A stretch of DNA of 64,000 nucleotides from a virus. Both the position numbers and the translations under genes were made by a program. The first letter of the stretch is position 1, and each line of letters begins with the position of its first letter. The stretch lies in the IMG/VR virus record IMGVR_UViG_3300045684_000009, positions 69,829 to 133,828 of that record; one strand, 5' to 3'. The notes beneath the pieces were generated by a model. That model was not told the origin of the DNA and did not search any database. It saw only the letters and a program-made list of their open reading frames with translations. Below, in pieces: positions 18,081 through 63,155 of the stretch.

Positions 18081-18094
18081 ATTTGTTTATTTTA

Positions 18095-18889: not shown

Positions 18890-18920
18890 ATATTATGTCA
18901 TTTGTTTTATTTAATACGTT

Positions 18921-20238: not shown

Positions 20239-20462
20239 TTTACTGATTTTAATTTCTTATTTAATTATTATTTAATCGCACCAAGGCTCTCCTTTATCTA
20301 ATTCTCCAAATAATCTGTTAGATAATCTACGAGCCCTGTTAATAACTTCGTCATCTAATAACTCCTTGTTCTCGTCAATGTATTGTGTTAATGCAACACA
20401 TATTATAACTACATCTTTATAGTGTAATTTTGTTGTTACTTTTTCATATATGTCGTATCCCA

Positions 20463-21197: not shown

Positions 21198-21799
21198 CTC
21201 ACTCTAAATGTAATTTCATCGCCAATATTGACTCGCATTTTACCCCTAACCTTGCGCAAATGCTCACAAGCTTGTTCACATGCCATATCTAAAGGCATAT
21301 CATCATCTTCTGTAAATCCAACGTATTCTGAAACTGTATGGTTGTAGGTTTCACCGTCATAAAAGTCTAAATCCTTCCATAATTCAATTACGTGTGGGGG
21401 GAAACCATCTTGAAATATTTCATATATCCTTGTTTGTTTCATTATGCTCCTAATTTTAATACATCAGTAAATGAAGGTTCGGATATTGAGATATTCCAAC
21501 TACCCTTAATCTCACCAGCCTTAGTGATAGTCTTCCACATATCTCCATGCTCCTCACCCTCACCCTCTACGAAGAAGAAGTGGTTGGGGAATAACTTTGA
21601 AAGCTCCTTAATATTTGATTCATGATCGTACCATTTCATGTCATCACCAAGTTCACCTAAATCAATACTGTACTCAGATATATCTTCTAACCTACGTTCT
21701 ATTAGGTATGCCTCGTCAGATGTATAATCCAACTTTTCAAATTTACCATTTGTCTTTTCAGTGTAAACGTTTACTATAAATCTTGTGTAATATCCCATG

Positions 21800-22345
21800 T
21801 TATGCTAATTTAAATTGTTTTAAAAATGTTCTTAAATCGAGAATACTTTCTCCACCCATTTCTGTTAAATACTTTTCCCACGCATCTGGAAAATCAAGAG
21901 ATAAAGCTGTAGGTTCTTGGTCAGATTTATATACACCTTTAGAATCAGGGTCTAACCACTTATTAAAGTCAGGATACTTATCATAATCCCACACTCTCTC
22001 GTCAGCAAGAAATACTACTGCGGTGAGTGCGTCATTTAAGTCTGGCTCATGAAATGTAGCGTGAGGTACGTCATTATTAACTAACCAAGCATGCTGCTGA
22101 TTTAAAGTGCCGATACTAAACCCTTCATCGTCTATTTTACTATTAGTAGTACCACCATTAAGTATAATGAATGTTTTATCATCCTCTGCCCATATATTGC
22201 AATCATGAACACAGCCCGCATTCAGGCAATCATAATTGTCCATCATATACTCAACAACAGCATGTCCAAACTGTATACCTTGTTGAATAGGTGAAAGGTT
22301 GTACGGTACGAGTCCGTACATTCTGTATTTTAGTTTATCTGTCAT
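21800..22345 (-). CDS. Pth2-like peptidyl-tRNA hydrolase family protein
   Basis: QQGIQFGHA and F.EPDL..ALTAV motifs seen in phage Pth2-like proteins. Confidence 0.6.
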   Translation of the reverse strand: MTDKLKYRMYGLVPYNLSPIQQGIQFGHAVVEYMMDNYDCLNAGCVHDCNIWAEDDKTFIILNGGTTNSKIDDEGFSIGTLNQQHAWLVNNDVPHATFHEPDLNDALTAVVFLADERVWDYDKYPDFNKWLDPDSKGVYKSDQEPTALSLDFPDAWEKYLTEMGGESILDLRTFLKQFKLA

Positions 22346-23418
22346 AAGTTATCTTTTCTAATTGTTAATAATAAATTCTGTGTAAACTTAGGCTTAACCT
22401 CGCGAGGTAAATTAGATGCATCAAATGCTGCTTTAATATCGTCAATCATAGACTCAGCATCGTCAAGTAATTCGTCATACTTCATCTCACCTCTACGGAT
22501 TTGAAGTAGATATTCTCTCTCAGGTCTACGCACCACAATACCTTTACCATCTGCAATGTCCTTAGACATATTTAGAAGTCTCATACAATGCATCATGTTT
22601 TTGTGGTCGTATCCTTGCTCTCCCTTTAGATTATCTCTATATCTAGCTTCATTCCTATTCTCTAACCATTCAGTGTATTCTCTATAATCCTTACAATGCA
22701 TTGAGTATGCATCTACATCAAATCTAAGATACGTTAGGTGACAAGCGTCTTTAGGTATGCTCACAGTTCTAACATTGTTAGAATCGTCACCAATAATACC
22801 ACCATCCCCGTCATCCATGTCGTACATAGAGTATGTATTTGGGATGTTATTAACTTTAGCTAAACCTATATACTTTTGAGCAATTATGGGGTCACCTGCC
22901 CCATTAATGTCGCACCATTTTTTAAAATTTACAGTGTGTTCGTTGTACATTAATACATAACAAAAATCAAGTACATCCTTTCTAGTCATTGCTTTAGCCT
23001 CTTGGTTTATTTTCTTATTTAAACCTTTTGCCTTTTGTATTTGAGAGTACGCGTATCCTGTATACGTATGTTTTAACTTTGTAGTGATGAATTTGGCTCT
23101 AGTTTCTTCAGGGAAGTATTTAACCCAATCATCTGTTGTAATACGTACACAGTCGTCGGGTAAATTAAACAACTCCTGCATATTAGGATTACCTTTCGAT
23201 AATAGTTCTATAAATCGACCTATTTCATAATATGTTTCATCGTTGGTGTTGTCGGATATTTGAGGAATATATCTACCCGCAAGTACTTCATCTGTGGGTA
23301 GAATAAAAACACCCCTCACGTCAACGTCACTACCTTCTACGTTTGTCCCATAAGCATGTGAACCCGATATACCTTCGAATATAATGCGCCCCGAAGTTCT
23401 TAATTGTTCAATATTCAT
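22342..23418 (-). CDS. Pol-beta nucleotidyltransferase (RlaP/YcgL-like)
   Basis: GSHAYGT..EGSDVDVRGVF, GNPN..E, GYA..Q, K.MMHC.RLL, LL.IRRG. Confidence 0.88.
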   Translation of the reverse strand: MNIEQLRTSGRIIFEGISGSHAYGTNVEGSDVDVRGVFILPTDEVLAGRYIPQISDNTNDETYYEIGRFIELLSKGNPNMQELFNLPDDCVRITTDDWVKYFPEETRAKFITTKLKHTYTGYAYSQIQKAKGLNKKINQEAKAMTRKDVLDFCYVLMYNEHTVNFKKWCDINGAGDPIIAQKYIGLAKVNNIPNTYSMYDMDDGDGGIIGDDSNNVRTVSIPKDACHLTYLRFDVDAYSMHCKDYREYTEWLENRNEARYRDNLKGEQGYDHKNMMHCMRLLNMSKDIADGKGIVVRRPEREYLLQIRRGEMKYDELLDDAESMIDDIKAAFDASNLPREVKPKFTQNLLLTIRKDNL

Positions 23419-23993
23419 ATTTGTGATTTAAAATAATTTAATGATTTTACAACCCTGGTGTCAAAAACATCTTCAGATGTATACCGTTTAATTATGTGGT
23501 CCACATATTCTGATTTATGACGCTTCCAAGTACTCACAGCTTCTCTTTTTTCTGAAAATACACCGATATGACGCTCCAACCCGTCGTGATTCATTCTAAC
23601 CCTGTATTTACCATTTTTAATAGTTATTCCTGTAGGTAGTTCTCGATTCAGGGATGAGTGAAGATTTAAGCAGTTATTAACATATCTAGGTATAAATACG
23701 CAAACATCAGGGTCGTATCTTTTATTACCTGGCTTCAATAAATCCTTATCTAAATGATACCCATCTATATAGTTAGAGTCCCACCATTGTTTAAATTTAG
23801 AGAACGATAACCATTCCGAACAGACGGAACAATCAACGTATGTGGGATACTTATTGAGAGATTTAGGTGAATATACTCTAAATAATATAGATTTCCAAAT
23901 TGCATATTCTTTTAATTTAGACACCCCTCCTCCATAGTCATTCATACCTACGCCGTATACCAATCCCATAATATTATAATGTTGATTCTTCAA
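23415..23993 (-). CDS. HNH-like endonuclease with AP2-like DNA-binding domain (probable homing endonuclease)
   Basis: Y..W..IL.R, YPTY.DCSVC.EW..FS.F, LDKDLL..GNK.Y.P..CVF, followed by LPTGI...YRV...HIGVF. Confidence 0.7.
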   Translation of the reverse strand: MKNQHYNIMGLVYGVGMNDYGGGVSKLKEYAIWKSILFRVYSPKSLNKYPTYVDCSVCSEWLSFSKFKQWWDSNYIDGYHLDKDLLKPGNKRYDPDVCVFIPRYVNNCLNLHSSLNRELPTGITIKNGKYRVRMNHDGLERHIGVFSEKREAVSTWKRHKSEYVDHIIKRYTSEDVFDTRVVKSLNYFKSQI

Positions 23994-24275
23994 TGAATAA
24001 ATACTCTCCTGAATCTAACCTACGTCTACAGTCATCTAATCCACAGTTTAGAAACTCATTTCTATATTTACCTGTAGTTCTTGAATAGTTCCAAGCACCT
24101 GTCAAGAAAACTGTATCGCTGTTGTCTTTTATAGCGATTATACTATCATATGATTTGAACATACTACCATTATCAAATTCGATAATTATTTGCTTTGGTG
24201 TTAAGTTGCGACCACGCGTTCGCATGTTCCTAGCACTCTTAAATGTACCTAACGTTTGTACTACTGTTTTAAGTT

Positions 24276-24758
24276 TCATATTCCATATTTTGAATAGAGC
24301 TGTTTAAACTCTAAGTTACCTAATAAAGATTCTAATTGTTTCTGTTGTTTTCTAATTACTTTCCCTCCCACACATCTATCTCTATACATATCACGTTCTA
24401 AACATTGGTCAACCGAAGTTTTCATTAAAAATATATGAGGGTCGAAGTTAATGTTACCAATTAAAGGTTTAAGATAAGATATCTTTAAATTAGTAGCATC
24501 TATGATAACATTTCTATCTGCACATGTGGCGGAGTCAAGTATGCCATTAATTACATCAGTAACTAATTCTTCCCTATAACTTATATCTTTAGAGTTATAG
24601 TAATCTTTATGTTGATGGTCTTCTAACCCCCACAATGCACTTCTAATACTATCTCTTGATACTATTATAGTGTGAGAGTGTTCTTTCATCAACCTCTTTG
24701 CTTCTGTAGACTTACCTGAACCTGATACGCCTATAAGTATAAACATTTTATTCATCAT
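24276..24758 (-). CDS. Polynucleotide kinase-like P-loop protein (AAA_33), no phosphatase domain
   Basis: GVSGSGKST, SRD.IR, IIDATNL, C.ER...R..V...VI..Q. Confidence 0.85.
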   Translation of the reverse strand: MMNKMFILIGVSGSGKSTEAKRLMKEHSHTIIVSRDSIRSALWGLEDHQHKDYYNSKDISYREELVTDVINGILDSATCADRNVIIDATNLKISYLKPLIGNINFDPHIFLMKTSVDQCLERDMYRDRCVGGKVIRKQQKQLESLLGNLEFKQLYSKYGI

Positions 24759-25558
24759 TCTGATTTTAAATGTAAGCTAATATATTGTCTTAATTGTTTC
24801 ATACCAGTTAACTGGCCACCTATTGATATTTCATGATGTAAATTATCAGCATCTAACTTGTCTTTCTCTCTCTTTCGAATCCTCTTATCAATCCACGCCA
24901 ATAACTCATCTTTGTTAACAGAACCTGGCGTACTGTAATCTCCCGACTTAGGTGCTAAACTCTTAAACTCAGAATATTTGTCTTTAAATAATGTATGGTA
25001 TCTAGCATGTATAACCTCCCACAATTCATTCCTTTCATGTTTATCAGCCAAGATATATAATTCTTCAAGTAACCACTTATACCTTGCTGGTTCTACGATG
25101 TCACCATGTCTTATTATCTGAATTCCGAAATCAAATATACGAATGGCGTGGAATATAGACTTTATAGCTAACACCTTGTCATAATCTGCAGATACAGTTA
25201 ACTTCTTATTTCCCTTAACCCACGCACCGTTGGCAACTGTCGAGAACGACTTCCTAAGTTTTCCTAAATCAATATCTATAGGTCCATAATTTCGATCACT
25301 ATCAAGGTATATACATTCAATCGCCCTAACGTCATGAGCGTCAACTGCTGCATCGAAATCAACCTTAGTAAATATATGTATTGTAATATTACCTTCATCT
25401 ATTAGAGAACCGTAATCGGGGTAAGGCTCACCGTCTGCTAATACTAATATGTAGTCATGGTCAGAACCTTTTCGTTGAGTACCGTAAGTAAATGAGCCAA
25501 ACTTAAATATAGAATCGAAGTTTAATGTGGATGTTACTTTATCTAATTTATCATGCAT
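24755..25558 (-). CDS. Pol-beta superfamily nucleotidyltransferase
   Basis: FGSFTYGT...SDHDYI followed by a helical KS.FHA.R domain. Confidence 0.78.
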   Translation of the reverse strand: MHDKLDKVTSTLNFDSIFKFGSFTYGTQRKGSDHDYILVLADGEPYPDYGSLIDEGNITIHIFTKVDFDAAVDAHDVRAIECIYLDSDRNYGPIDIDLGKLRKSFSTVANGAWVKGNKKLTVSADYDKVLAIKSIFHAIRIFDFGIQIIRHGDIVEPARYKWLLEELYILADKHERNELWEVIHARYHTLFKDKYSEFKSLAPKSGDYSTPGSVNKDELLAWIDKRIRKREKDKLDADNLHHEISIGGQLTGMKQLRQYISLHLKSE

Positions 25559-26246
25559 ATCTAAATTCTCTTATATTATTTGAATCTAATAATTGTTGTA
25601 ACAACGGATCATCACAATCCTCAATGTAATAGTTTTCTAACTCTCCTTTATTGTACATATCGTTCATGGTCTTCCTCAAACCATCGTGTCTGTTCTTAAG
25701 GCGAACTACCATTTTATGGTTGTTGTTGTATAACTCTATTTGTTTTCTAACGCCCTCCAATGTGGGAAGTTCATTCTTTAGTAGACAACTAGCACAGTAT
25801 AAACCTCTAGCAGCGTGTCCTAACTTCTTATCGTGTTTCCAATTCCTTATATCTCGTTTAGCGAAACCTAAATAAGCCTTAATTACTTTGTAAGTTCTTA
25901 CGTGAGCTAAAGCTGATTCATCTAACAGGCTACCTTTTTTAAATAAAGACCTATTCCACATAATTACATCACTGTTTATAGTGGATTCACCCGAGGTTTG
26001 ATTGCGGGAGAATTGATCCATTGTTGTCCAAATATAATCAGTGTTATCTTCTGTATATTGGAATTGATGAGAGTTTGGGAACATCCCTAAGTCATCATTC
26101 CACGAAGTTGGTGGTCGATAAACACACAATAAATCCAGATCACTATCTCTACTATTAGTTCCATATAACCTAGAACCTATTGTTACCTTCCTGTTTGTGA
26201 AACTATCTAATCTTAGATGTTCCTCTTTAGTTATTTTAATGTTCAT
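25551..26246 (-). CDS. Pol-beta superfamily nucleotidyltransferase
   Basis: IGSRLYGT...SDLDLL, AYLGFAKRD, K..HA.RGL. Confidence 0.78.
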   Translation of the reverse strand: MNIKITKEEHLRLDSFTNRKVTIGSRLYGTNSRDSDLDLLCVYRPPTSWNDDLGMFPNSHQFQYTEDNTDYIWTTMDQFSRNQTSGESTINSDVIMWNRSLFKKGSLLDESALAHVRTYKVIKAYLGFAKRDIRNWKHDKKLGHAARGLYCASCLLKNELPTLEGVRKQIELYNNNHKMVVRLKNRHDGLRKTMNDMYNKGELENYYIEDCDDPLLQQLLDSNNIREFRYA

Positions 26247-26698
26247 CAGATTCTATTTAGTTTACGGAGTCTATGTAATTGTCTGCAAAACTCTCTTTCA
26301 GTTAATACGGTTTTGGATTCATCATTATGGCCTATGTTGTGGGTAAATACAGCATCCCCTGACGCCTCTAAATCCTTTCTAAATTGTTCATTAGTATTTA
26401 ATGCATCGTATGCTCTAGTTAGTAGGTCTTGATAATTATCTGACTTCCTTTTGTATGTTATATCATTCCACCATAACATCTGTAACGATTGCCACCTCTT
26501 ATTTCTACCCTTACCTTTTCGTTTAGCAGCAATACCTACGAGTGTGCATGTATATTTCTGAGCATTAGTGTCATGATATTTAAACGCCTGTAATAACCCC
26601 TCCATAGACGCACACTCTACCCCGTCAAATATAAAAGACCTAGCTGTGAAGTTACTCAACCTTGCAGCAACTCCTTTATTACTCTTTCCTATGTTCAT
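26246..26698 (-). CDS. NADAR-family ADP-ribose hydrolase (T4 gp30.3-like)
   Basis: LSNF...F.FDGVECASMEGLLQ.FK, LWW, L.ASG...H.IG...TVLTE.EF. Confidence 0.75.
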   Translation of the reverse strand: MNIGKSNKGVAARLSNFTARSFIFDGVECASMEGLLQAFKYHDTNAQKYTCTLVGIAAKRKGKGRNKRWQSLQMLWWNDITYKRKSDNYQDLLTRAYDALNTNEQFRKDLEASGDAVFTHNIGHNDESKTVLTEREFCRQLHRLRKLNRI

Positions 26699-28038
26699 AT
26701 ACTTTCTTGTTCTTCCATGTCCACAAGTTTATCAGAGTCTTTTACAATTCCCTCAAGAACTTTGTGTGCAAATGATTTATGTTTAAATAATAGTGGAGCT
26801 TCACCACCTCTGTCTATTCTAACTACAACACCTTCTCTTAATGTATTAGGGAAGAAGTCACATGGTACTTTAGTAGTTTCATACTCCACATAACTCTTAA
26901 AGTTTGTGAGTCCACCACTAACAACTAATTCGAATGCCCCTGATTCATTAGTTAAATAACCAGATATAATCTCAGGGCAGTGTTCAATCTCCATTTCTTC
27001 ACATCTTCTCTTAACTCTCTCCCACGAATAATCAACGCTACTTCCTTGCTCGTTAGTTAATGTCATTCTATATACGAAGATATTGAACTCACCTGCATCG
27101 CAACCATACTGCATTGGAATCTCTGCACCATAGAACTCTATCATTCTATCATACTCTTCCTTACTAAAGAAGTCTTTCAACTTTCTAGTAACATGTGTAG
27201 GTTGTATGTTCTGACCAGAAGGCGTCTGACCGACTATCTCAAAGTAAACAGTCTCACCCTTACAAAGCTTACCTTCAACCTTCTTAGATGCTAATGACCA
27301 TATGTCATCATCATAGAAGTCTTGATTACCTTCTCTCTTATCACCTTCTATGGTTTTAACAACCTTTCTAGAACCAACTACGTACCCATATTGAGGGTCA
27401 GGGGTTGTACCAAATAACTTATGATACCATTTCTTCTTCTGTACTATTGGTAGATAACCAGTACGTCCCGAAGTTCCATGAAGTTTACAAGTCATAGTGA
27501 CGTGGTCACCGTCCTTCAACTTATCATAATACCTCATCAAATGGTCTGTACTCATATGCTCTTTAAACAATGGAACTCTATTCTCTCTAGCTTTACCTAA
27601 CTTACCTAGATTGGCACGAGTAGTAGCATACTTCCTAACATACTTCTCACAAATAGTAACTCCGTTTATCTTATGGTCTTGAACACCATTGTCTAACTCT
27701 ATAGTTCCTATAACGGGTTCTAATTGTGCGAATGATAGAAATAGACATGTACACTGTACACCTTTCAACCTTATAGGTTTGATTCTACCATTGTCTCCAA
27801 GGTATCCTACTTTAGTCACATCTTCATTCAACTCTTTATGTCTATACATATTGAGTCTAGAGGCTATTTCGGGGAATAACTTGGATTCACAATCAATTAT
27901 AATACCTCTTGTACCTATTGGGTTTTCAGATATAGATACAATGGCTATCTCACCGCACATCTCAGTCCAAACTATTCGGTCTGCTCCCTCTATTGGATTG
28001 TGGGTTTTTATTTCTGTTACAATAAATTCTCCTGTCAT
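26695..28038 (-). CDS. ATP-dependent RNA ligase (Rnl2/DRB0094-like with N-terminal OB domain)
   Basis: N-terminal PIEGADRI, motif I KLHGTS, VGSR, YFEIVG, REGVVVR and FKHKS. The likely start is ATG 28038. Confidence 0.85.
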   Translation of the reverse strand: MTGEFIVTEIKTHNPIEGADRIVWTEMCGEIAIVSISENPIGTRGIIIDCESKLFPEIASRLNMYRHKELNEDVTKVGYLGDNGRIKPIRLKGVQCTCLFLSFAQLEPVIGTIELDNGVQDHKINGVTICEKYVRKYATTRANLGKLGKARENRVPLFKEHMSTDHLMRYYDKLKDGDHVTMTCKLHGTSGRTGYLPIVQKKKWYHKLFGTTPDPQYGYVVGSRKVVKTIEGDKREGNQDFYDDDIWSLASKKVEGKLCKGETVYFEIVGQTPSGQNIQPTHVTRKLKDFFSKEEYDRMIEFYGAEIPMQYGCDAGEFNIFVYRMTLTNEQGSSVDYSWERVKRRCEEMEIEHCPEIISGYLTNESGAFELVVSGGLTNFKSYVEYETTKVPCDFFPNTLREGVVVRIDRGGEAPLLFKHKSFAHKVLEGIVKDSDKLVDMEEQESI

Positions 28039-28637
28039 TATAATGTAGGCGTTGTGGCAGATGTAATCCACCTATTAAGTAATTGGGCTTCCATGTTGTT
28101 TTTAAAATCAGCATCACCCATGTCAATTATTGGTATTTCAAAATCAATTCTAGTGAAGTCACCTAAATTGCAGACATAATGGGCTACACCTTTTCTTATG
28201 TAGCTAAAGTAAGCAATAGGTTTCTGCTTGTATAAAGCTTTTTTAATTTCTGTATTTGTCATTGTTTATTAGTTTATCAAGTTCATAATCGTTAGCTAAC
28301 CAAGCTTGAACTCCATACGGAGTCTGTTCTATTATCACATGGGGTCGGTCAATATCTCCCGATGTTAAAACTCTTATGTGAGTCTCTTCATTTAACATAA
28401 AGTCGTGTGTTACTCTATCTTCCATTTTATTTCCTTTTTAATTGTTTAATTTCATCTTCTGTCAACGACCACCAATCATTATTATCACTGTGTTCATAAT
28501 CTAATATATAATCACAATAATCCCAATCATTAATAATCTCTCTAGGGTGCGGCAAGTCCATAGGATCAACTCCTGAATTTAAAAGAGTCTTCCAATGACT
28601 TCTCACTATTCGCCAATATATATCTTTCTTATATGCT

Positions 28638-53480: not shown

Positions 53481-53840
53481 TTATCTTCTTATAAGTTTGT
53501 AGGTTATATCCCATTTCCCATAAACATGCGGTGGGACTAATAAATCAATTACACTACACCAACTATACCTATTGTTCATTATGTCTTGTATTTCGTAAGT
53601 ACCTTCTACCTCACAACCCCCACACCTTATGATAACCAAATCTCCATATGCAAGAGTACCATTGTAAATCATATTACGTGGTACTGCTGCTATTCTTGGT
53701 GGATTTTGGGGGTCACTTATTGTGTAACCGCTTGATGTTATACAAGGTGTCGAATCTGTTTGAGAAGACACAGCATGATAAACCGTAGCTTGTGTAAAGT
53801 GTGGCGTTTGAAATAGTAACAATATTATAAACAATATCAT
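53481..53840 (-). CDS. 3D-domain (MltA-like) cell wall-associated protein
   Basis: Signal peptide, AT.Y...QTDSTP.ITSSG, AAV.R, YG, QD.M, IDL. Confidence 0.75.
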   Translation of the reverse strand: MILFIILLLFQTPHFTQATVYHAVSSQTDSTPCITSSGYTISDPQNPPRIAAVPRNMIYNGTLAYGDLVIIRCGGCEVEGTYEIQDIMNNRYSWCSVIDLLVPPHVYGKWDITYKLIRR

Positions 53841-55348
53841 ACAACAGATGTTAAAAAGTCAAATAACTGTTTTTTATCACATTTTTCTAAAGCTGCTGTT
53901 AATTCTAGATATTTTGCTAATGATATATTGTCACCACATATTTCAAACAGACAATCTTTTGGAAGAACTTCATCCGTAATACTACATTTACTTATTTGAC
54001 TTTTATGATAAAGGTGTTCATTAAATTTCACAAGATGTTCGTGGCCTTTAGGTAGGTAAGTTTTGTCTTTTAATTGTACGCAATCTTCCTCCCATTCATA
54101 TTCATTAATGTGTTGGCACATTCTTGCGTGGTTAGTAGGAATAGGGTTACCGCTAACTGTATTAAATTCTAAGTATTCTTCGGGAACTCTTTGGTCAATT
54201 CTACCAATGTATTCGGAATTTCTGTCGTCATACCAATCACCTTCCCAATATAGGAATCGACTACCTTCGTGACATCTATATCTATGTATTAGTTTTTTAT
54301 TTGTACGTCTGTTTATAAACACACCACACCCGTCTGAGTATACGAGTGTGTCCAAATAAGGATTATAATCATGGTCAGCATTATCTAGAGTGACACATAT
54401 AGATAGTTCAATTTCGTTGATGTACCCGTTTTGCGGAGACATTACATATTCTCCATCTTCAAACGTATTATAGCGAGACCTATACCACCACTTATTCCTT
54501 CTAGCGTAATTTACAAAGGCTTCTTGAGTACCTTGAGACCCATACACTCTATCCATAAATTTAAATCCATCATCTGTAGTCCATATTAAAGCCCTACCTT
54601 CCAATAAACCTTCTTTATTTATCAACGTCAATAATTCAATTTTAGAGGGGTTGTCAACGAATATATCTAACCAATGTTGACATCTTTTATATCTCAAACA
54701 CGAGTCTTGTAAACTGTAGGTTTGTCTGGTTGAATAATTGTCTTCTAAATACCAAAATCTAACATCTTCTCCTTTTACTATTTTGAATTCGAATTGCATT
54801 TCTTGGACGATACCTAACCACTCGTTAACTCCTTGTTCTATTTCTGCATGGGTAACATCAGGAAACACATTCTTTAAAACCTTACCTACCTTGGACATCA
54901 TTCTACATGATTGGTCGTATACATCTACATCTTTAAATATACACTTCTCTAATGAGTCAAAAGTATGAAAAGATATCTTAAATGGGTCAGTAGAACAAAA
55001 GTCTAAATGTGAGTACTTAGAATCAAAAGAGTCTGTAAGTAATCTATTCAACAGTGTGGAATTACTTTTTGATATTATATTTGCCAATCTCTTACGTACC
55101 GACCAATTGAATGCGTCGCGTGTTGCCTTCTCTAATTCACCTTTAAATTGGTAGAAACCGTCCATTGCTTCTTTAATACTTGCATACCCATTAAAACAAA
55201 CATCTGTTGGACTTTTCAACCCTATTTGTAAATTGTTTAAAAACACTCTATCACGCAATGTTTCTATATATACTCTACCACCCAATGGATTATAACATAT
55301 AGTATCCTTAAGTGTATATTCTTTTAAATTCTTATGTATTATTTTCAT
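53837..55348 (-). CDS. conserved phage protein of unknown function
   Basis: K.GKV, SCLRY, RALIW...FMDRVY, PYLDT motifs plus C-terminal short Cys/aromatic repeats. Confidence 0.6.
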   Translation of the reverse strand: MKIIHKNLKEYTLKDTICYNPLGGRVYIETLRDRVFLNNLQIGLKSPTDVCFNGYASIKEAMDGFYQFKGELEKATRDAFNWSVRKRLANIISKSNSTLLNRLLTDSFDSKYSHLDFCSTDPFKISFHTFDSLEKCIFKDVDVYDQSCRMMSKVGKVLKNVFPDVTHAEIEQGVNEWLGIVQEMQFEFKIVKGEDVRFWYLEDNYSTRQTYSLQDSCLRYKRCQHWLDIFVDNPSKIELLTLINKEGLLEGRALIWTTDDGFKFMDRVYGSQGTQEAFVNYARRNKWWYRSRYNTFEDGEYVMSPQNGYINEIELSICVTLDNADHDYNPYLDTLVYSDGCGVFINRRTNKKLIHRYRCHEGSRFLYWEGDWYDDRNSEYIGRIDQRVPEEYLEFNTVSGNPIPTNHARMCQHINEYEWEEDCVQLKDKTYLPKGHEHLVKFNEHLYHKSQISKCSITDEVLPKDCLFEICGDNISLAKYLELTAALEKCDKKQLFDFLTSVV

Positions 55349-55350
55349 AA

Positions 55351-56322
55351 TTATTCTGGATTTAATATTAATTCATATTTACCACAGTCCTCACATCTAT
55401 AATACTCACTACTGAGTCCGTCAACATACATGTCACCTTCACAACTACGACATTCGATAGGGTCTTCTTCTCGATAGTAAGCTTCTAGAAGTTCTTTCAT
55501 AGACATGTTACTTTTAAACTGTTCAAATGATGCAGGTGTTTCTGCAGCTTTACTCCACCTATTTCCACTAAATTGCGTGAACAGTTCAATAAATAATTCT
55601 AAACATAACATTGCTTCACAGATGTTGACAATTTCTATATCGGTGTGTGCTTCATAATACCCGCAAGATACATTAGCTGCACAACACCCTGCTCCATTTA
55701 TTATAAGCTCACCTACATCAGTCATAGACCCAATGTTAAACTTATAACCGTATTCCCCAAGTAAACCATCGACAGCCATGTTGAATTCATTTGTAGTAGT
55801 GTTGACTCCGTTAGTATAGTTAACGAAATCGTTTGTATCTGACCTTCTGTCACCTTGTAATATAAAACAACAGTCTTCGAAAAAGGAGGTGTCAAAGTCC
55901 GTAGACCCTAGACACCCCACCTCTTCATCTACAAACAACACCACCTTACAAGCATCTAATGCGAGTAAGCATTCTAAACACAACCACACGCCTACTAAAT
56001 CATCACCCCCACATCCAACTTGTTCGTAATTGGATATTGCCATGAAGCAACCTTTGTGTTCTATGATGTCATAATCTTCACGGAAAATGTGCACTTGATC
56101 TAAATGCGCAACAACTGCTGGATAAAACTCACCATCTTTAGGTTTACCTTTCACTATAGATACGTTACCTAACGCATCCATATCCCAAGTCAATTTTATA
56201 CCTTTACTTTGCACATGAGTTATAACCTTTTGAGCAATACTCAACTGTTGCTTTAAGTCATAACTTTCTGCTTGTAGCGATAATAGAGTTTTTAATCTAT
56301 CTTTCTTTGTTAACATTTTCAA
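55351..56322 (-). CDS. M20/M28-family zinc peptidase with C-terminal zinc ribbon
   Basis: VAHLDQV, GGDD..G, DEEVGC.GS, DRR, TDV, GYY.AHT; C-terminal CRSC...CEDC. Confidence 0.85.
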   Translation of the reverse strand: MKMLTKKDRLKTLLSLQAESYDLKQQLSIAQKVITHVQSKGIKLTWDMDALGNVSIVKGKPKDGEFYPAVVAHLDQVHIFREDYDIIEHKGCFMAISNYEQVGCGGDDLVGVWLCLECLLALDACKVVLFVDEEVGCLGSTDFDTSFFEDCCFILQGDRRSDTNDFVNYTNGVNTTTNEFNMAVDGLLGEYGYKFNIGSMTDVGELIINGAGCCAANVSCGYYEAHTDIEIVNICEAMLCLELFIELFTQFSGNRWSKAAETPASFEQFKSNMSMKELLEAYYREEDPIECRSCEGDMYVDGLSSEYYRCEDCGKYELILNPE

Positions 56323-56327
56323 ACATT

Positions 56328-56361
56328 TTAATAATTAATAAACTGTGGTTGACCGAGGTTA
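56328..56361 (-). repeat. 34-bp direct repeat, copy 1 (contains the 20-bp palindrome)
   Basis: TTAATAATTAATAAACTGTGGTTGACCGAGGTTA, identical to 58366-58399 at 33 of 34 positions. Confidence 0.9.
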
Positions 56362-57018
56362 CGCATTCACAAAGAATAGGTTAGGTAAATCAAATACAAC
56401 ATTTTTCGATATATCTTCTGTACCACCATAATTAGTTACTAACTCTTCTGCCATCAAACTAGCCTCTGTGTTTATACGATGATATATAGAAATAGGGCTT
56501 CCACAAGGAGTGAGGTCATCTTCATCGTACTCTTGTCCTGACTCCAATGCGGCGTATTCAGCAGCTAAAGTTTTATAATCACCTCTAATTACTTCAACAT
56601 TACCACCACGAGCGTTAACACCTCCTGATATTACCAAAGGGTTACCAGTTATCCTTTCTAATATCGCAGCTCTTGCATGATAATTGTCAATAGCCAACAC
56701 AACAACATCGTTAGAATTTGTCCTAAGATATTTAACTTCTCTATCTTGAATTCTGATTGCACCCTCATCATCAATCATAGACGCTAAGTCTTTTATAGCA
56801 TCTACCTTTTTCATACCGATGTGTTTACGAAAGTAGGCTTGATTATTCAGATTCTTTTCCTCAACTACGTCCATATCATATGCTATGATTTTGGTAGAAA
56901 GATTGAGTCTACATAAGTTTTGAATAAAGAGCGAACCCATAGCCCCACACCCTACAACATGGATGTTTCCTTTGATTTTATCTCTGTCTATTACAGAGAA
57001 CGATTTTGTATTCAGCAT
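56359..57018 (-). CDS. ThiF/E1-family ubiquitin-like activating enzyme
   Basis: VVGCGAMG nucleotide loop, D.DVVEEKNLNNQ, IG.KKVDA, AIDN..AR, and candidate catalytic Cys172 (TPCG). No CxxC zinc motifs. Confidence 0.9.
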   Translation of the reverse strand: MLNTKSFSVIDRDKIKGNIHVVGCGAMGSLFIQNLCRLNLSTKIIAYDMDVVEEKNLNNQAYFRKHIGMKKVDAIKDLASMIDDEGAIRIQDREVKYLRTNSNDVVVLAIDNYHARAAILERITGNPLVISGGVNARGGNVEVIRGDYKTLAAEYAALESGQEYDEDDLTPCGSPISIYHRINTEASLMAEELVTNYGGTEDISKNVVFDLPNLFFVNA

Positions 57019-57034
57019 CTTTTTTATTTAATAA

Positions 57035-57994
57035 TTACCAATAATGTTGAAAATCTCTACGTTGGTATTCATTCCACAACTCAGTTCTACACTTGCCAAA
57101 TCTCTCAAGTATATCCTTGTCAACCATGTCTGTAAATACCTTGAAGGCTTCTGTATCATCTTCGGGTAAGTCTTCGAATATTTGATTTTGCAGCTCTAGC
57201 ATTTCTATTTTTGTTAGATTTCCTGGAAGCCGTACCTTGTTTGTTTCCACTTTTTTTTTACTGTAATTCTTAGATCCTCCGCCAGTTTGCGCTCCCGTTC
57301 TAGCGTATGCTTGATTCACACTTGTAATTACATTGTTATTATTATAATAACTGCCTCCCCACGATTTTGAAGAAAACTTAGTTTCAATTGCTTCATCTAA
57401 TTCGTCCGTAATCTTCTCAGACAATGGGTCACATAACAAGTTATAAGCTAGTAAATCACACTTTAAAAGAGCTTTGACGTCATCGACATCTTCGCAAGAT
57501 TTTATATCAAGCATTAGTGAATTCTCCATTTGTTCTTCGTCAATCGGTGCGTCGATAGATACGGGTACATTTTTAATATATATACCTCGGGTTGTATCAA
57601 CTATGTGTCCGAATATTTCCAACCTCTTATTCATAACTATTGAACAATTCCAACCTGAAAGGTCAGCTCTATCCACTATTTCTTCAAAATCTGTACCTGA
57701 TGCGAATACTGCCATGTTGACATGAGAATGCATGTGTCCTAAAGCTTTAGACATGTCTAAACCTTCAGCTAACAACTCTATCATGTCATCATCGTCGAAT
57801 TCAGTATGAGTACCTGTATTGACTTGATTAGGAATAAAGTAATCATACAATCTGAAACTGTCTTTATCTCTATCTGCATGAGTTATCACTGTAAACTCTT
57901 TGTCGTATTTCGACGTTAACATATACCTAAGAACTCTATACAGAGTCCAATCTATAGATATTTTATAATCTAGTTCTAAATTCTTAATTTCCAT
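57035..57994 (-). CDS. JAB/MPN+ (JAMM) metalloprotease, putative Ubl-processing/deconjugating enzyme
   Basis: Glu33 (KEF), P.Q.N, and an exact JAMM motif HSH-x7-S-x2-D (HSHVNMAVFASGTD). Confidence 0.9.
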   Translation of the reverse strand: MEIKNLELDYKISIDWTLYRVLRYMLTSKYDKEFTVITHADRDKDSFRLYDYFIPNQVNTGTHTEFDDDDMIELLAEGLDMSKALGHMHSHVNMAVFASGTDFEEIVDRADLSGWNCSIVMNKRLEIFGHIVDTTRGIYIKNVPVSIDAPIDEEQMENSLMLDIKSCEDVDDVKALLKCDLLAYNLLCDPLSEKITDELDEAIETKFSSKSWGGSYYNNNNVITSVNQAYARTGAQTGGGSKNYSKKKVETNKVRLPGNLTKIEMLELQNQIFEDLPEDDTEAFKVFTDMVDKDILERFGKCRTELWNEYQRRDFQHYW

Positions 57995-58007
57995 TTTAAA
58001 CGATTTG

Positions 58008-58041
58008 AAAAAGGCTAGGACTCTTGGAACGCCCTAGCCTT
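58008..58041 (-). terminator. Intrinsic terminator/attenuator after the Ubl gene
   Basis: Minus strand AAGGCTAGG...CCTAGCCTT followed by TTT. Confidence 0.7.
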
Positions 58042-58063
58042 AAATTAAATAATGTGAAGTATT

Positions 58064-58306
58064 CTAACTAAAGAAGTTTAGAATACGAGATAAAGCACTT
58101 TCATTCTTAGATTTGACACCAAGAACTCTTGCTACAACAAAGTCACTGTCTTCAAGTCTGTCATTAGTATCTCTGTTGTACAGAGTTATCTTTGACAAAT
58201 CTCTACCCAACTCACCTTCAAGAACTTGCTTAAGTTCTGAACACTGAGCACCATCTGATACCTCAACTGTTACTTTCTTACCTGCTGTTTCGAATGTTAC
58301 TAACAT
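58064..58306 (-). CDS. Ubiquitin-like (beta-grasp) protein
   Basis: 80 aa with a beta-beta-alpha-beta-beta pattern (VTFET / VTVEV / SELKQVLEGELG / ITLY / LEDSD..V.RVL) matching ubiquitin spacing. It sits between the E2-domain and JAB genes. Confidence 0.75.
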   Translation of the reverse strand: MLVTFETAGKKVTVEVSDGAQCSELKQVLEGELGRDLSKITLYNRDTNDRLEDSDFVVARVLGVKSKNESALSRILNFFS

Positions 58307-58365
58307 AATCGTTTGTGAAATTCTTTTGTTGTTTTTATTCTGCCATCTTCTCTTTGCAGAAATTG

Positions 58366-58399
58366 TTAATAATTAATAAACTGTGGTTGACCGATGTTA
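58366..58399 (-). repeat. 34-bp direct repeat, copy 2
   Basis: TTAATAATTAATAAACTGTGGTTGACCGATGTTA. Confidence 0.9.
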
Positions 58400-59803
58400 T
58401 AAATCAGTTAAAGAAACTGAATCTTCTTGATGTGCTACTTCTGTAGTCGATTCCATCTCCGTAACCTCTTGTTGCATTAACGCTGTTAAGGTTTCTGCCT
58501 CACGCTTTGCGGCGGCTGCTGCTTTTTTAGCTGCTAATGTCCTTCTTCTTTTCTCTAATGATGCTTTCTTCTTTTGAGCGTCTAACGCTGTTAACTCGTT
58601 GAACTTACTTAAAGAAACCCACCCTTTAGATTTGTATTCTTTGGGTTGGTCACTCGGTACTAACCATCTTCCTTCTATCGGCGAATATACAGTATCAGAG
58701 TCTAAATACCAAACACCGTTAATACGTTTTATTCCTAAATCCTCACCAACTGTGGCGTACCAAGAACCTTTAATATTAATTGCATCATTTCGATATGTAT
58801 AACCTTCTAAGTTTACACACCTGAATGCGTCAGATTTAGGTATCCAAACACCCTGATTTGATATAAGTGATTCTGACTTTACCAAGTTTATACCGAGACG
58901 TTCTGAATACACCATTTCTACGGCAGGTGCTAACCACCTTGTATAATACTTACCTGCTGTATCTCTTGAATTATAAGATTCAGAGAAGTTTTTCAACAGT
59001 ATTTTTATTATAGGTATGTTTAATGTAGTAATGGCTTCTGTCATTTCTGCATTTAAAGTACCTATACATAATGAATTAGTACGTAAATGGTGTGGGTGAT
59101 ACGCGTGTTCAAAGAATGCGTGTCTCTTTTCAGTACCTGACAGAATGTTTACAACCTTATCTGCGAGGTTTATTGTATAGGTTATATTACCTAAAAATAT
59201 GGGAACTCCTTGTCCTTGAACATCTGTTGCTGTAATGTCTTCAATGGTACACTTTAAAATATTTGAGTCATAAACCTCAAATCCAAAATTAAACATATCT
59301 TCTATTAACGCCTCAGAGTTTTTCTCACTTATTTCTAGTTCGTTTTTCAACTCTTGTTCGTGTTCCAACGCTGATATATACGAACGTTTAGCTCTATCAA
59401 TTGTAACCACAGCTTCACTGTGTCTACTTCTAACTAATGACTCTCGCTGACGCTTAAAGTGTAATAATGGAAACATATGCCGTACATACCTTATAGTGTC
59501 GTGTCTACTTAGATAGTCAATATCTAATAAACCCCGCATTATTTGCGCATCGGTTCTTTGCTTTGGACAATGGTATATTACCAAACTATTGTTGATTGTA
59601 GTAATTCTACCTAAACTTGTTTCATCATTTAAATAAAGCCGAACTGCAAACTTATCTTTAGCATATTTATCCGAGGTTAATTGAGAATCCGTCCTATAAA
59701 TTTTGTTAGGTTCTACATCCGCATTTAATTCTAACACCTCTATATTACCTTCCTCAAATGCTGCTTTAAAAGATGGTATACAATATTTTATTATATTCTC
59801 CAT
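58397..59803 (-). CDS. Multidomain protein with a prokaryotic E2 (UBC-like) conjugating domain
   Basis: Beta-strands followed by YHPHHLRTNSLCIG (HPx...C motif of UBC, Cys246) and a helix pair ending SYN..D..G...W. Flanked by a coiled coil and C-terminal repeats. Confidence 0.72.
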   Translation of the reverse strand: MENIIKYCIPSFKAAFEEGNIEVLELNADVEPNKIYRTDSQLTSDKYAKDKFAVRLYLNDETSLGRITTINNSLVIYHCPKQRTDAQIMRGLLDIDYLSRHDTIRYVRHMFPLLHFKRQRESLVRSRHSEAVVTIDRAKRSYISALEHEQELKNELEISEKNSEALIEDMFNFGFEVYDSNILKCTIEDITATDVQGQGVPIFLGNITYTINLADKVVNILSGTEKRHAFFEHAYHPHHLRTNSLCIGTLNAEMTEAITTLNIPIIKILLKNFSESYNSRDTAGKYYTRWLAPAVEMVYSERLGINLVKSESLISNQGVWIPKSDAFRCVNLEGYTYRNDAINIKGSWYATVGEDLGIKRINGVWYLDSDTVYSPIEGRWLVPSDQPKEYKSKGWVSLSKFNELTALDAQKKKASLEKRRRTLAAKKAAAAAKREAETLTALMQQEVTEMESTTEVAHQEDSVSLTDL

Positions 59804-59816: not shown

Positions 59817-59850
59817 AAAAATAGCCTACCTCAAAAAAGAGGCAGGCTAT
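59817..59850 (-). terminator. Intrinsic terminator
   Basis: ATAGCCTaCCTC-AAAAAA-GAGGcAGGCTAT hairpin with a minus-strand T-run. Confidence 0.75.
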
Positions 59851-59877
59851 CAATCGTTTTAAAAATAAGGTTTGAAC

Positions 59878-60596: not shown

Positions 60597-61997
60597 TTAC
60601 GACAGTTGGTCAATCTTAGTACAGTAACTAAGGTTAGCTGTACGTTGTGCTCTAAGAGTATTGACCTCATTTTGCAAGTTTGCAATTTGGGTAACTCTTA
60701 CTTTCTCCTCCGCATCAATTTGCATATTGATGTTTTGAAGCTTTTCTTTAATGCCGCCAAACACACTAGTGGCATTTTCGCTTTTAGCAATTAAGCCATT
60801 GATATTGGACTTACTACTTAAAGGATTTAGTTTCGATACTTTTTCAAACATAATTTGAATTTTTAATGATTAAATAATAAATGATTCCTCCATGACTTCG
60901 TTCAGTGCTTCTTGGAGTATGTTATCTGATATGACGGGTGCAAATGACTTCATATGACACCACCAAATCTTACTGAAGAGTAGTGTAGCACAATCTCTAC
61001 ACCTTAATGCTGAATTTTCAGGCATTTTAAGTCCTATATCTATCTTCATACCGCAACATAGTTTCGATATATTTAATATAGTATATATGTCACCTTTTCT
61101 AAACGCACCATCTGAGTGACTCACTAGTGCTACAACTTGTGTTCCTACTTGCATATCTCTTACATTATAGGTGTACCATTTAATTTAAATAAAGTATAAC
61201 TGGCATCGTAGGGGTCTTTGTGTTTAAATCCACCCTCAAATCTCAATTTAGTAGCTTCGAGGATATTCTTTAATTTCCAACCATCACGTAAGAGTCTATA
61301 AATCTCTTTCATTGCGGTGTTATGAGTCACACCCATAGACTTCTCCATTTGCGCTATATTGTATAATCTAGCAAACCACGCTTGAACCTTATAAGCCCAC
61401 TTCACGAACTCTGCTGAGAATAACTTCTCTATCCAAGAGTCACCGTCATCTGTGATTACATTGACATATCTGTTTTTATACTTGATAATTGTCTTAGCTG
61501 ATTGTTGATCTAAACTTGAAAAATATCTCATTTTAATTGTTTTTTATTTATTATCAATAACATCTGTTGACCGAGGTTTAAAAACCCACCACACCACTAC
61601 TTTTAGCGGTGGGTGGTAAAATTCAAAATATCACGAAAGTATTTTAGTCTTTTACATATACATAGTAGTTCTGATGTATATCAGCTTCCATGTAACCTAT
61701 TGTGTCTCTACCTCTAATAACTCTATAAGTTCCATCATCTAACAATATGAACTTAATGTCTGTTTCATATATGTAACCACTTCCACAATTCATGTGAAAA
61801 GTGTACATACCTAAACCTCTGTCTATTAATATGTAACCTACATGCTCTGAGAGGTCATTAGAACCGTCGTAAGAGAAGATCTCCGACTCGACGATAGAAT
61901 ATGAGTGTAAGTCTGAAAAGTCCATCTCAACGCCTTGTGTGAAGGCTGAGGTGGTGATGAATAATATCGCTAATAATACGTTAATTGTCTTTTTCAT
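60597..61997 (-). other. Small early genes (four hypothetical ORFs; one Cys-rich, one exported)
   Basis: ORFs 60597..60851, 60870..61154, 61160..61531 and 61644..61997. Confidence 0.55.
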
Positions 61998-62691: not shown

Positions 62692-62794
62692 AATGTGATA
62701 TTTTGTAAAAGAGTTTAAAAAACCCACCACACAACTACGTTTAATTGTGGGTGGTAAATTATCAAATAGGTAATAGTAAGTGTGAAAAAATAAA

Positions 62795-62989: not shown

Positions 62990-63155
62990 AATGTGATATT
63001 TTAAAGGTTTGAAAAACCACCGCAATAATACAACTGCGGTGGTAAATTAGAAACAATGAATAATATAAAATAGGGTCGCAGTTTAGTCTGCTTTAATTCC
63101 ATCACCTCTGTGTAACAGTCAGCAAGTCTTTAATTTTATTTTAACCCTATTGTTT

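Follow-up and report, generated by a model that had tools for sequence, protein, structure and literature searches.

Known prokaryotic conjugation systems

Characterised bacterial ubiquitin-like (Ubl) conjugation either serves anti-phage defence (CBASS, Bil) or has an unknown role (Bub). The locus compared here with these systems lies in a 64,000-nucleotide stretch of viral DNA, the window. Like the window set, Bil types I and II have separate Ubl, E2, JAB and E1 proteins, cysteine chemistry, a JAB that trims the Ubl precursor and no E3. However, the Bil E1 consists of IAD, AAD and CYS domains with a zinc site whereas the window E1 is a 219-aa single domain. The Bil Ubl ends in Gly and BilB has a His after the Cys, in contrast to the putative Ala end and the His before the Cys in the window, and Bil is a cellular anti-phage system while the window set is phage-borne (PMC10557695 and PMC11601596, in part). 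PADLOC gave a weak match to BilD (E 6e-4) and none to BilA, BilB or BilC. Membership in Bil was rejected on the missing IAD-AAD-CYS and zinc site, the missing C-terminal Gly and the missing gene order Ubl-E2-JAB-E1.

Type II CBASS Cap2/Cap3 shares with the window a homodimer-type E1, a JAB isopeptidase and a natural Gly-or-Ala terminus of the conjugated protein, but Cap2 is an E2-E1 fusion and its tag is a CD-NTase, unlike the separate enzymes and predicted beta-grasp Ubl of the window (PMC10097602, in part). The separate genes, PADLOC matches limited to the E1 domain and a scan of neighbours that found no CD-NTase exclude the locus from this type. Bub types I and II also use a minimal, UBA5-like homodimeric E1 and a JAB that frees the Ubl end from a precursor; they differ in Tyr/Ser oxyesters, gene fusions and DUF6527, where the window has invariant Cys and separate genes (PMC11601596, in part). 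With Cys172 and Cys246 invariant and no DUF6527 among the 12 neighbouring proteins scanned, Bub membership was rejected too.

Operon type 6D (Iyer et al. 2006), or PRTRC, likewise has its Ubl, E2, JAB and E1 as separate genes on mobile DNA, but its Ubl is Gly-ended, a JAB-N domain and an extra helical protein are present, and the E2 His is downstream of the Cys (PMC1779556, in part). Of the PRTRC family models, TIGR03736 alone matched, with 38.5 bits for the window E1 against a cut-off of 144.75, and membership in PRTRC was rejected. Sulfur relays of the ThiF/ThiS or MoeB/MoaD kind were set aside on the lack of a Gly-Gly carrier, the presence of an E2 and the absence of rhodanese, ThiG and MoaE from the phage genome (0/1 each, controls positive in 11-14/14), an absence already claimed in the earlier note.

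The nearest likeness is to other phages. In crAss001 (gp79-gp78-gp77-gp76), the Steigviridae (Yutin 'beta' group) and Flavobacterium phage Fpv3 (gp55-52) the same four genes are adjacent, with a hairpin behind the Ubl gene. Their order is Ubl-E2-JAB-E1 in contrast to E2-Ubl-JAB-E1 in the window, their Ubl is Gly-ended and mostly long-tailed where that of the window has an apparent Ala end and a 9-residue tail, their E1 has a DGR motif, and the coiled coil and repeat module predicted in the window E2 are not shared. Judged by sequence and predicted structure, the window locus belongs to the broad class of prokaryotic Ubl-E1-E2-JAB systems, with a Ubl fold, a UBC domain with its Cys, an E1 crossover Cys and an intact JAMM.

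The cassette and its carrier

The carrier is an uncultured crAss-like phage of 133.8 kb, assigned by its virion and packaging markers: the genome encodes a crAss-type major capsid protein (MCP), a terminase, a portal and, in one block, virion proteins of very large size. The MCP is 22-26% identical to crAss-like and Fpv MCPs (49 records). The four-gene E2/Ubl/JAB/E1 cassette on the minus strand is confirmed (Table 1). The five reading frames described in the earlier note, the peptidase included, were recovered on that strand. The E2 has HPH at 236-238 and Cys246, the JAB has E33, H89, H91, S99 and D102, and the E1 has GCGAMG at 23-28, NLNNQ at 56-60, DNYHAR at 111-116 and Cys172, as described there. 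The complete set, with predicted beta-grasp and UBC folds and invariant catalytic cysteines, stands on a phage genome. The probable source contig of the window, which is not independent of it, spans the region unbroken and without a single difference.

Table 1. Features of the conjugation locus and its surroundings (window coordinates)
Feature	Position	Strand	Basis or detail
Terminator-like hairpin immediately upstream of E2 gene	59820..59851	-	intergenic stretch -24 kcal/mol, z -5.7
E2-like conjugating enzyme, 468 aa	58397..59803	-	structure models, structural alignment, residue invariance
E2 residues 1-110, poorly modelled; coiled coil 112-161			predicted structure
UBC-fold domain, E2 residues 161-295 (His236, His238, Cys246)	58919..59323	-	model, domain pLDDT 93.9
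E2 beta-hairpin repeat module, residues 296-397, then C-terminal helix and acidic tail			
34-bp direct repeat copy 1, 20-bp imperfect palindrome 58379-58398	58366..58399	.	family D5, 97% identity
Ubl precursor, 80 aa; beta-grasp domain about 1-71 and 9-residue tail	58064..58306	-	predicted-model comparison
Predicted mature Ubl end K67-N-E-S-A71, Ala in place of Gly	58094..58108	-	register against relatives
Intrinsic-terminator-like hairpin and U-run between Ubl and JAB	58011..58041	-	-18.4 kcal/mol, z -4.9
JAB/JAMM metallopeptidase, 319 aa, long variable C-terminal part	57035..57994	-	JAMM residues
Minimal single-domain E1 (ThiF/UBA5-like), 219 aa	56359..57018	-	Pfam ThiF, E 1e-17
34-bp direct repeat copy 2, palindrome 56341-56360	56328..56361	.	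family D5
M20/M28/M42-type peptidase, 323 aa	55351..56322	-	phrog_4191, E 1e-39

Two close relatives were found, L007 and L008, and each has the four genes side by side. The order E2-Ubl-JAB-E1 recurs in L007, and L008 has Ubl-JAB-E1-E2. A 125-aa gene upstream of the E2 gene is not counted as part of the cassette because it has no match to its positional counterpart in L007.

The peptidase, which had been proposed as a further cassette member, does not belong to it. None of 166 other E1-centred loci has it (single-sequence phmmer), and in Cellulophaga phage phi38:1, whose genome lacks ThiF, it lies beside a homologue of the window's downstream 503-aa gene. Instead of a fifth component it is part of a separate two-gene module with 53837-55348.

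Ubl tag

The 80-aa protein was expected to have a beta-grasp fold, and structure prediction bears this out. Its residues 1-74 match a NEDD8 cluster at TM 0.73, with predicted models on both sides. Eight of 10 structure rows aligned on ubiquitin-type Pfam and the other two are a FUBI-eS30 fusion and a BAG/ubiquitin cluster. By sequence, Pfam ubiquitin reaches it at E 0.056 only, and a word-indexed protein search found no relative.

The window Ubl has no Gly within its last 18 residues, a feature that the earlier note missed. Its K-N-E-S-A is in register with the K-x-K-S-G of 80 crAss001/Fpv3-type Ubls, and the P5-P1 register K-x-x-[S/N]-[G/A] is kept across the Ubls, many rows of which are near-copies. 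This register places the putative cleavage after Ala71. P1 is Gly in all 80 crAss-type Ubls, every one of them tailed. It is Ala in 3/3 close Ubls, one of which (L007) terminates exactly there, and in all 23 Ubls of a second set of loci, group B, of which 14 terminate exactly there. The Ala end of the window clade rests on three sequences since a Ubl was visible in just two close loci. In five group-B loci (L011-L015) the reading frame ends in a Gly three residues past the Ala, so a Gly end is possible in those five. Of the 119 IMG/VR stretches picked up by a DNA-pattern scan for the Ubl end, not one has an E1, JAB or E2 in its vicinity. The tag of the window phage appears to end in Ala and not in the usual Gly. 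Ala is a natural terminus of CBASS CD-NTases (PMC10097602, in part).

E2-like enzyme

A UBC fold around Cys246, which the earlier note had proposed, is found in the predicted model. When the domain was compared with 48,161 chains by VIA-align the top 12 matches were all E2 enzymes (Z 5.9-6.7), with an rmsd of 3.2-3.8 Å over 110-114 residues. The match of the model is modest (Z <8, rmsd >3 Å). Neither the full-length protein nor the UBC domain had a Foldseek match in the PDB at E<=0.001, no E2 family was named for the protein by Pfam/NCBIfam, and a PDB sequence search with the E2 profile returned coiled-coil noise only. In the ESM Atlas, the named structure nearest to the domain is PRTRC protein B / Prok-E2_D, at TM 0.49.

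Pro237, His238 and Cys246 are invariant, in 39/39 rows of one alignment and 57/57 of another (60 matches minus 3). The His-to-Cys spacing is 9-11 residues in 54 of the 60 homologues, and 10 in canonical E2s. One homologue touches Pfam UQ_con (E 0.03). The C-termini are variable, with the repeat module in 40/60 homologues and a MIB/HERC2-like domain in one.

JAB and E1

The JAMM residues E33, H89, H91, S99 and D102 are invariant in 7/7 aligned JABs. Profile scores of the window JAB are low (Prok-JAB E 0.08, PADLOC JAB E 0.014, JAMM1 E 0.25), whereas crAss-type homologues pass the Prok-JAB cut-off. A tblastn search of cultured phages with the JAB gave no match.

The best PDB sequence match of the E1 is UBA5 (E 1.8e-13). 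Cys172, in the crossover loop, is invariant in 55/55 rows (57 matches minus 2 fragments). The E1 has three cysteines only and lacks the zinc cysteines. Asn59, also passed over at first reading, replaces the ATP-binding Arg of UBA5 and UBA6; crAss-type E1s have Gly at this position. Positions 26, 59 and 177 are candidates for explaining Ala tolerance, but no claim is made for them because only two or three independent clades are available. In a tree of 74 E1 rows, built by a quick method, Ala-ended tags go with E1 clades of their own. Both Ala groups fall there with four other rows in one weakly supported open group; the tree neither shows nor excludes a single origin of the two. Complex prediction with two E1 copies and the E2 domain gave a score of 0.03 (mark 0.32) and weighs on neither side.

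Hairpins and repeats

The hairpin between the Ubl and JAB genes was overlooked by a generic scan. None of 200 shuffles was equally stable. A terminator-like hairpin follows the Ubl gene in 79/86 unique loci, against 13/79 after the E2 gene, 17/88 after the JAB gene and 4/86 in shuffled sequence; this contrast is inflated because the sequence behind E2 and JAB is mostly coding. A hairpin so regularly placed implies that the tag may be made in excess. Each repeat copy overlaps a stop codon: that of E2 for copy 1, which lies ahead of the Ubl gene, and that of E1 for copy 2, which precedes the peptidase gene. A generic promoter scan performed at chance (46 found, 47.4 expected), and the listing for the locus contains no RNA holder.

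Relatives in other phages

The kit is not peculiar to the window phage. Homologous four-gene sets occur in crAss001, a Kolpuevirus, cr106_1 and Fpv3, and an E2-like gene was found in DAC15 too. When domain profiles were compared, those of the crAss type matched the window Ubl at E 9e-5 and, with His and Cys in alignment, the window E2 at E 4e-4; the E2 alignment against crAss001 gp78 alone was not significant (E 0.38). The full set is present in 76/80 crAss-type loci, the four misses having less than 1.7 kb upstream of the E1 match, and in 23/25 group-B loci. Single-protein and JAB-profile scans of IMG/VR found no close relatives, nor did a search of GTDB genomes.

A primase is located at most 6 kb away in 69/80 crAss-type loci, and the crAss001 homologues gp79-76 adjoin the primase in the replication block. 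This block comprises middle genes (PMC8375218, in part), an expression class that gp76-79 would share by position. That the window cassette is among the phage's earliest genes, as the earlier note had it, is unproven, although a non-coding region nearby allows it.

Related kits sit unrecognised in cultured gut phages. The E1 is annotated ThiF in crAss001 and Fpv3. Supplementary Fig. 2B of PMC7886860, a source covered in part, lists the crAss001-type genes as 'ThiF family', 'MPN, metalloprotease' and two 'uncharacterized' genes in the replication block. Term searches of the main texts of PMC7886860, PMC6235969 and PMC7824862 found no statement of a Ubl system for the crAss genes, and full-text searches outside subscription journals gave, among the matches listed, no paper on a phage-encoded Ubl-E1-E2-JAB system.

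Mechanism and alternatives

The locus probably encodes a self-contained system for conjugating and removing an Ala-ended Ubl tag. It is proposed that the hairpin behind the Ubl gene ends the majority of transcripts, so that precursor would exceed the enzymes. The JAB would cut the precursor after Ala71, and the minimal, probably homodimeric E1 would adenylate the Ala carboxylate and form a thioester on Cys172. The tag would then pass to Cys246 of the E2, assisted by His236/His238. Without an E3, the coiled coil and variable C-terminal modules of the E2 may choose the target, on which a lysine isopeptide would form, and the JAB could undo the conjugation. Its most likely place of action is the infection cycle of the phage itself, near the DNA-replication phase. 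Within this explanation the acceptor would, by a slight preponderance, be a host protein (takeover or defence); a phage protein is a substantial possibility and a competing phage's protein a small one. Host tagging or anti-immunity as the function is unproven.

The same cascade could serve an acceptor other than a protein lysine, such as an amine on a lipid (as with Atg8), the base or terminus of a nucleic acid, or a replication-linked small molecule. The minimal homodimer-type E1 and single small terminal residue do recall the UBA5 and Atg7/Cap2 lines, a lipid acceptor is left open for Cap2 (PMC10097602, in part), and the primase linkage is tight. But characterised bacterial sets make protein conjugates (PMC10557695 and PMC11601596, in part) and no constant lipid- or nucleotide-modifying partner gene occurs among the cassettes examined, which makes such an acceptor unlikely. 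A Bil-like weapon that tags a rival phage's structural protein, in superinfection exclusion or carrier-state competition, is slightly less probable again. The fixed replication-block site in many related phages is not that of a variable hotspot (PMC7886860 Supplementary Fig. 2B, in part), and the PADLOC result for Bil is poor, even though the four activities are those of Bil, crAss001-type phages have the Bil gene order (PMC10557695, in part) and crAss001 persists long with its host (PMC8375218, in part).

A ThiF/ThiS-like sulfur relay, forming a thiocarboxylate for tRNA or DNA thiolation with borrowed host sulfur donors, would agree with the ThiF annotations, with the best E1 score being to ThiF models (far below cut-off) and with JAB-trimmed sulfur carriers (PMC1779556, in part). 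An E2 with an invariant Cys in almost every locus, an E1 devoid of a zinc site, and the missing Gly-Gly end and sulfur-transfer partners make it very improbable. Least credible is a decoy that performs no productive conjugation, its JAB stripping host Ubl or CD-NTase conjugates and its Ala-ended Ubl jamming host E1s. A Gly-to-Ala change does slow transfer from Cap2 so that thioester accumulates (PMC10097602, in part), and the canonical E1 Arg is missing, but even distant phages keep the E1 and E2 cysteines without exception and the Ala end follows its own E1 clades.

Significance

It is possible, at somewhat less than even confidence, that several unrelated phage lineages have a ubiquitination pathway of their own firmly built into the infection programme, and that one branch (the window clade and group B) rewired E1, E2 and JAB to an Ala-ended beta-grasp tag. 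The rule of a Gly end for Ubls would be broadened by such a tag; the precedent for an Ala terminus, the CBASS CD-NTases, is not beta-grasp. Host E1s and JAB isopeptidases that are specific for Gly could neither charge nor remove it; the tag would be orthogonal to them, and it could yield an orthogonal protein-tagging system. To mark host proteins the phage would rely on an E2 with interchangeable targeting modules of its own. What a phage tags is directly testable because homologous genes are present in the cultured gut phage crAss001 (gp79-76). Ubl conjugation owned by lytic phages reverses the direction known from bacterial anti-phage defence, and would give phages a new means of taking over the host or of regulating themselves.

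The E1 and E2 proteins

All five ORFs and every motif that the earlier note had quoted were found in place in the window. In the JAB, E33, H89, H91, S99 and D102 are invariant in 7 of 7 sequences. The E1 matches Pfam ThiF (E 1e-17); of all solved structures, that of the minimal E1 UBA5 comes closest to it in sequence (E 1.8e-13). Alignment of 55 of the 57 homologues found, two fragments being excluded, showed that G23, G25, G28, D48, N56, Q60, K71, D111, R116 and C172 are invariant. The predicted ATP site is non-canonical, because position 59, Arg in UBA5 and UBA6, is Asn in the window and Gly in the E1s of crAss-type sets (crAss001/Fpv3-like, with a Gly-ended Ubl). The invariant residues K5 and R181 could compensate for the absent Arg.

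For the 468-aa protein, 60 relatives were found at E<=0.001, and P237, H238 and C246 are invariant in both alignments (39 and 57 rows). In 54 of the 60 homologues the His and the Cys are spaced 9-11 residues apart, compared with 10 in canonical E2s. As had been claimed, a UBC fold surrounds Cys246 in the predicted model: when residues 161-295 (pLDDT 93.9) were compared with 48,161 chains, E2 enzymes took each of the first 12 places (Z 5.9-6.7, rmsd 3.2-3.8 Å over 110-114 residues), and UBC or RWD folds made up nearly all of the top 50. Given such modest Z values and the lack of a significant Foldseek match in the PDB, the protein as modeled is a diverged E2.

The cassette has no E3. In the window E2 the UBC domain lies between a coiled coil on its N-terminal side and a repeat module on its C-terminal side. 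Of the 60 homologues, 40 have this module (the profile was derived from 39 of those), and the 503-aa protein, encoded two genes downstream of E1, also carries it C-terminally (E 8e-11). The closest E2 homologue, P0009, has at its C-terminus (residues 414-462) a MIB/HERC2-like domain, known in eukaryotic E3 ligases, with an E-value of 1.6e-7, just under the cut-off. By analogy, these variable parts, coiled coil, repeat module and MIB/HERC2-like domain, may choose the substrate; a loop of BilB is proposed to do so in the account given in PMC10557695.

The Ubl and its probable alanine end

The 80-aa protein, earlier read as a beta-grasp protein, has a ubiquitin fold in the ESM Atlas, with TM 0.73 to NEDD8, and its profile matches that of the crAss-type Ubls (E 8.6e-5). 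Gly is absent from its last 18 residues. The C-terminus reads K67-N-E-S-A71 followed by nine more residues, in register with the K-x-K-S-G of the crAss-type Ubls, all 80 of which continue into a tail beyond this motif (one false HMM match was removed, and 7 rows, 5 mis-tallied and 2 missed automatically, were read by eye). In the two close metagenome relatives, the Ubl ends exactly at the equivalent Ala (L007) or is one residue longer (L008). In group B, a second set with a probably Ala-ended Ubl, all 23 Ubls read K-x-x-[N/S]-A, and for 14 of them (13 unique) the ORF stops at that Ala; many of the Ubl rows behind these counts are near-copies. In five group B loci (L011-L015) the ORF closes with a Gly three residues past the Ala, making the reactive end ambiguous there. 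Counting back from this Ala as P1, the conserved Lys at P5, the small polar P2 and the tail-less ORFs ending at P1 make Ala the likely reactive end. The E1 tree has three separate, well supported groups, two with Ala and one with Gly, and does not demonstrate one common origin of the Ala end. We know of no characterised beta-grasp Ubl with an Ala end. Among CBASS CD-NTases, which end in Gly or Ala, conjugation of an Ala-ended one is described in PMC10097602.

Distribution of the cassette

The four-gene kit is a trait of the family. All four genes occur in each of the two close relatives, as E2-Ubl-JAB-E1 in L007 and Ubl-JAB-E1-E2 in L008. Following the E1 into cultured phages gave a Kolpuevirus, cr106_1, crAss001 (gp79-76) and Fpv3 (gp55-52), whose Ubl, E2-like, JAB and ThiF genes adjoin the primase or sit one gene away. 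The crAss-type E2 is present in 74 phage records. Among the best 80 of 370 crAss-type E1 loci in IMG/VR, all four genes were found in 76 and a primase within 6 kb in 69; in the four incomplete loci, the sequence ahead of the E1 match is shorter than 1.7 kb. Supplementary Fig. 2 of PMC7886860 lists the cassette genes only under the beta group, so that by that figure the cassette is not universal in crAss-like phages.

Group B (L011-L034 and L036) was selected from 80 E1 relatives by a JAB gene close upstream, and 23 of its 25 IMG/VR loci have all four genes. In domain profile comparisons the window E2 matched that of group B with E 1.6e-5 (probability 79%) and the crAss-type E2 with E 3.5e-4 (37%), the His and Cys being aligned in both. 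A reverse transcriptase (Pfam RVT_1) lies within ~1 kb after the group B E1 in 4 of 4 loci tested, and in 24 of 25 loci the Ubl comes after a conserved gene of 122 aa. In L030, L031 and L033 the 122-aa gene forms part of a longer ORF, and its fusion behind the Ala end of the Ubl in L031 and L033 suggests a JAB-cleaved polyprotein. Viral Ubl cassettes of other layouts were also seen (Table).

Features of the window and of other viral loci
Feature	Coordinates	Strand	Remark
E2	window 58397-59803	-	468 aa
Ubl	window 58064-58306	-	80 aa
JAB	window 57035-57994	-	
E1	window 56359-57018	-	
Peptidase, M20/M28/M42-type	window 55351-56322	-	
503-aa gene	window 53837-55348	-	no assigned family
NAD-salvage, tRNA-repair and nucleotidyltransferase-like genes	window 14079-28071	-	run of genes
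Examples in this run	window 14079-15842, 20463-21197, 22342-23418, 24276-26246	-	read from N-terminal sequences only
20-bp palindrome sites	window 56341, 58379, 61559, 62322, 62797, 63156, 63186, 63627 and others		
58-bp repeats	window 61573-61630, 62711-62768		intergenic, start of leftward block
Element resembling the 58-bp repeats	near window 63010-63045		
Reverse transcriptase	L011:6941-8266, L016:6927-8075, L034:7594-8769, L036:7446-8663		group B
122-aa gene	L016:2530-2898 and homologues		group B
Ubl/122-aa fusion	L031:3099-3743		group B
Tandem Ubl genes	L037:3437-4141		Ala-Gly ends
Two E1 genes flanking Ubl, large protein and JAB	L046:5977-9682		
Cassette whose E1 has a long N-terminal extension	L059:4886-6876		

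The phage genome and the flanking genes

The virus record has 133,828 bp, and the window is its bases 69,829-133,828. Its ends overlap by 127 bp and it is classed as having direct terminal repeats; the CheckV completeness estimate is nonetheless 66%. PHROG family matches were obtained for its terminase, portal and major capsid protein. In 49 records, from crAss-like gut phages, Azobacteroides phage ProJPt-Bp1 and Flavobacterium Fpv phages, the capsid protein is 22-26% identical to that of this genome. The genome is treated here as that of a distant crAss-like phage. A sediment metagenome is the one sequencing run that contains it, and probably the source of the record.

The peptidase, which the earlier note had made a cassette member, does not belong to it. 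It was not found in any of the 166 other loci searched, and in Cellulophaga phage phi38:1, whose genome lacks ThiF, it adjoins a homologue of the 503-aa gene. The two genes form a separate module, tied to the cassette solely by the shared repeat. The 503-aa protein accompanies the M28 peptidase in two Cellulophaga phages, phi38:1 and Calle_1, and 7-15 copies are present in each of five megaphage records of 635-735 kb.

The cassette is possibly among the early genes, because it lies ~3 kb from the non-coding region where the leftward gene block starts. According to PMC8375218, the early genes of crAss001 occupy the right end of its genome, whereas its replication genes belong to the middle expression class; gp79-76 lie ~11 kb inside this right-end region, after helicase and primase. 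Elsewhere in the window, the run of genes read from N-terminal sequences as NAD-salvage, tRNA-repair and nucleotidyltransferase-like suggests a putative large anti-defence repair island.

Hairpin, repeats and palindromes

A strong hairpin with a U-run (-18.4 kcal/mol, z -4.9) lies between Ubl and JAB. Our own hairpin-plus-U test placed an element of this kind behind Ubl in 79 of 86 unique loci, versus 13/79 after E2 and 17/88 after JAB, control regions that are mostly coding, and 4/86 in shuffled sequence. This fits a tag used in bulk and enzymes that are catalytic.

Two 34-bp direct repeats (97% identity) overlap the E2 and E1 stop codons and so flank Ubl-JAB-E1. Each contains one copy of a 20-bp imperfect palindrome, AAC-M-T-Y-G-G-N4-C-C-R-A-K-GTT, a pattern derived from these same sites, which has 23 genome copies at <=1 mismatch versus 0.2 in Markov controls. 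The copies are densest in or near the non-coding region at 63.0-64.0 kb and often overlap stop codons; the palindrome looks like an operator or an origin or packaging protein site. Neither L007 nor L008 contained a match to a looser pattern used before this one. Two 58-bp repeats with 81% identity and an internal inverted repeat are possibly promoter stem-loops.

Mechanism and relation to known systems

The most probable mechanism is reversible lysine tagging. The Ubl precursor would be made in excess and trimmed by JAB after Ala71; an E1 dimer would adenylate the trimmed Ubl and hand it from Cys172 to Cys246 of E2, which would join it to a lysine of a target picked by its accessory domains. 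The attachment would be reversible. That the acceptor is not a protein at all is unlikely. Many phages have the cassette at a fixed position in the replication block, which favours a role in the phage's own cycle; use as a weapon against other phages appears quite improbable. A sulfur relay is more improbable still; as had been claimed, sulfur-transfer partners are absent, rhodanese, MoaE and ThiG not being found in the whole genome. That the cassette is a decoy is the least credible of these alternatives.

The tagging cassette would work like Bil, but differs from it in E1 architecture, Gly end and gene order, and these features rule out membership. It is not Bub, since the Cys is retained, nor CBASS, there being no fusion and, among the neighbouring proteins scanned, no CD-NTase; PRTRC/6D is ruled out by NCBIfam cut-offs. 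A Ubl-E1-E2-JAB operon class was predicted earlier in PMC1779556, where the phage cases described include lambdoid tail Ubl/JAB pairs. The crAss genes are labelled singly in PMC7886860, as 'ThiF family', 'MPN, metalloprotease' and two 'uncharacterized'. A literature search outside subscription journals found no paper on a phage-encoded Ubl-E1-E2-JAB system.

The complete conjugation cassette that had been proposed is borne out by the folds, the invariant residues and the same genes in relatives. It is a real, conserved, phage-borne ubiquitin-like conjugation set, its conjugation activity being predicted from sequence and models. What would distinguish it among known Ubl systems is its predicted Ala-ended tag.
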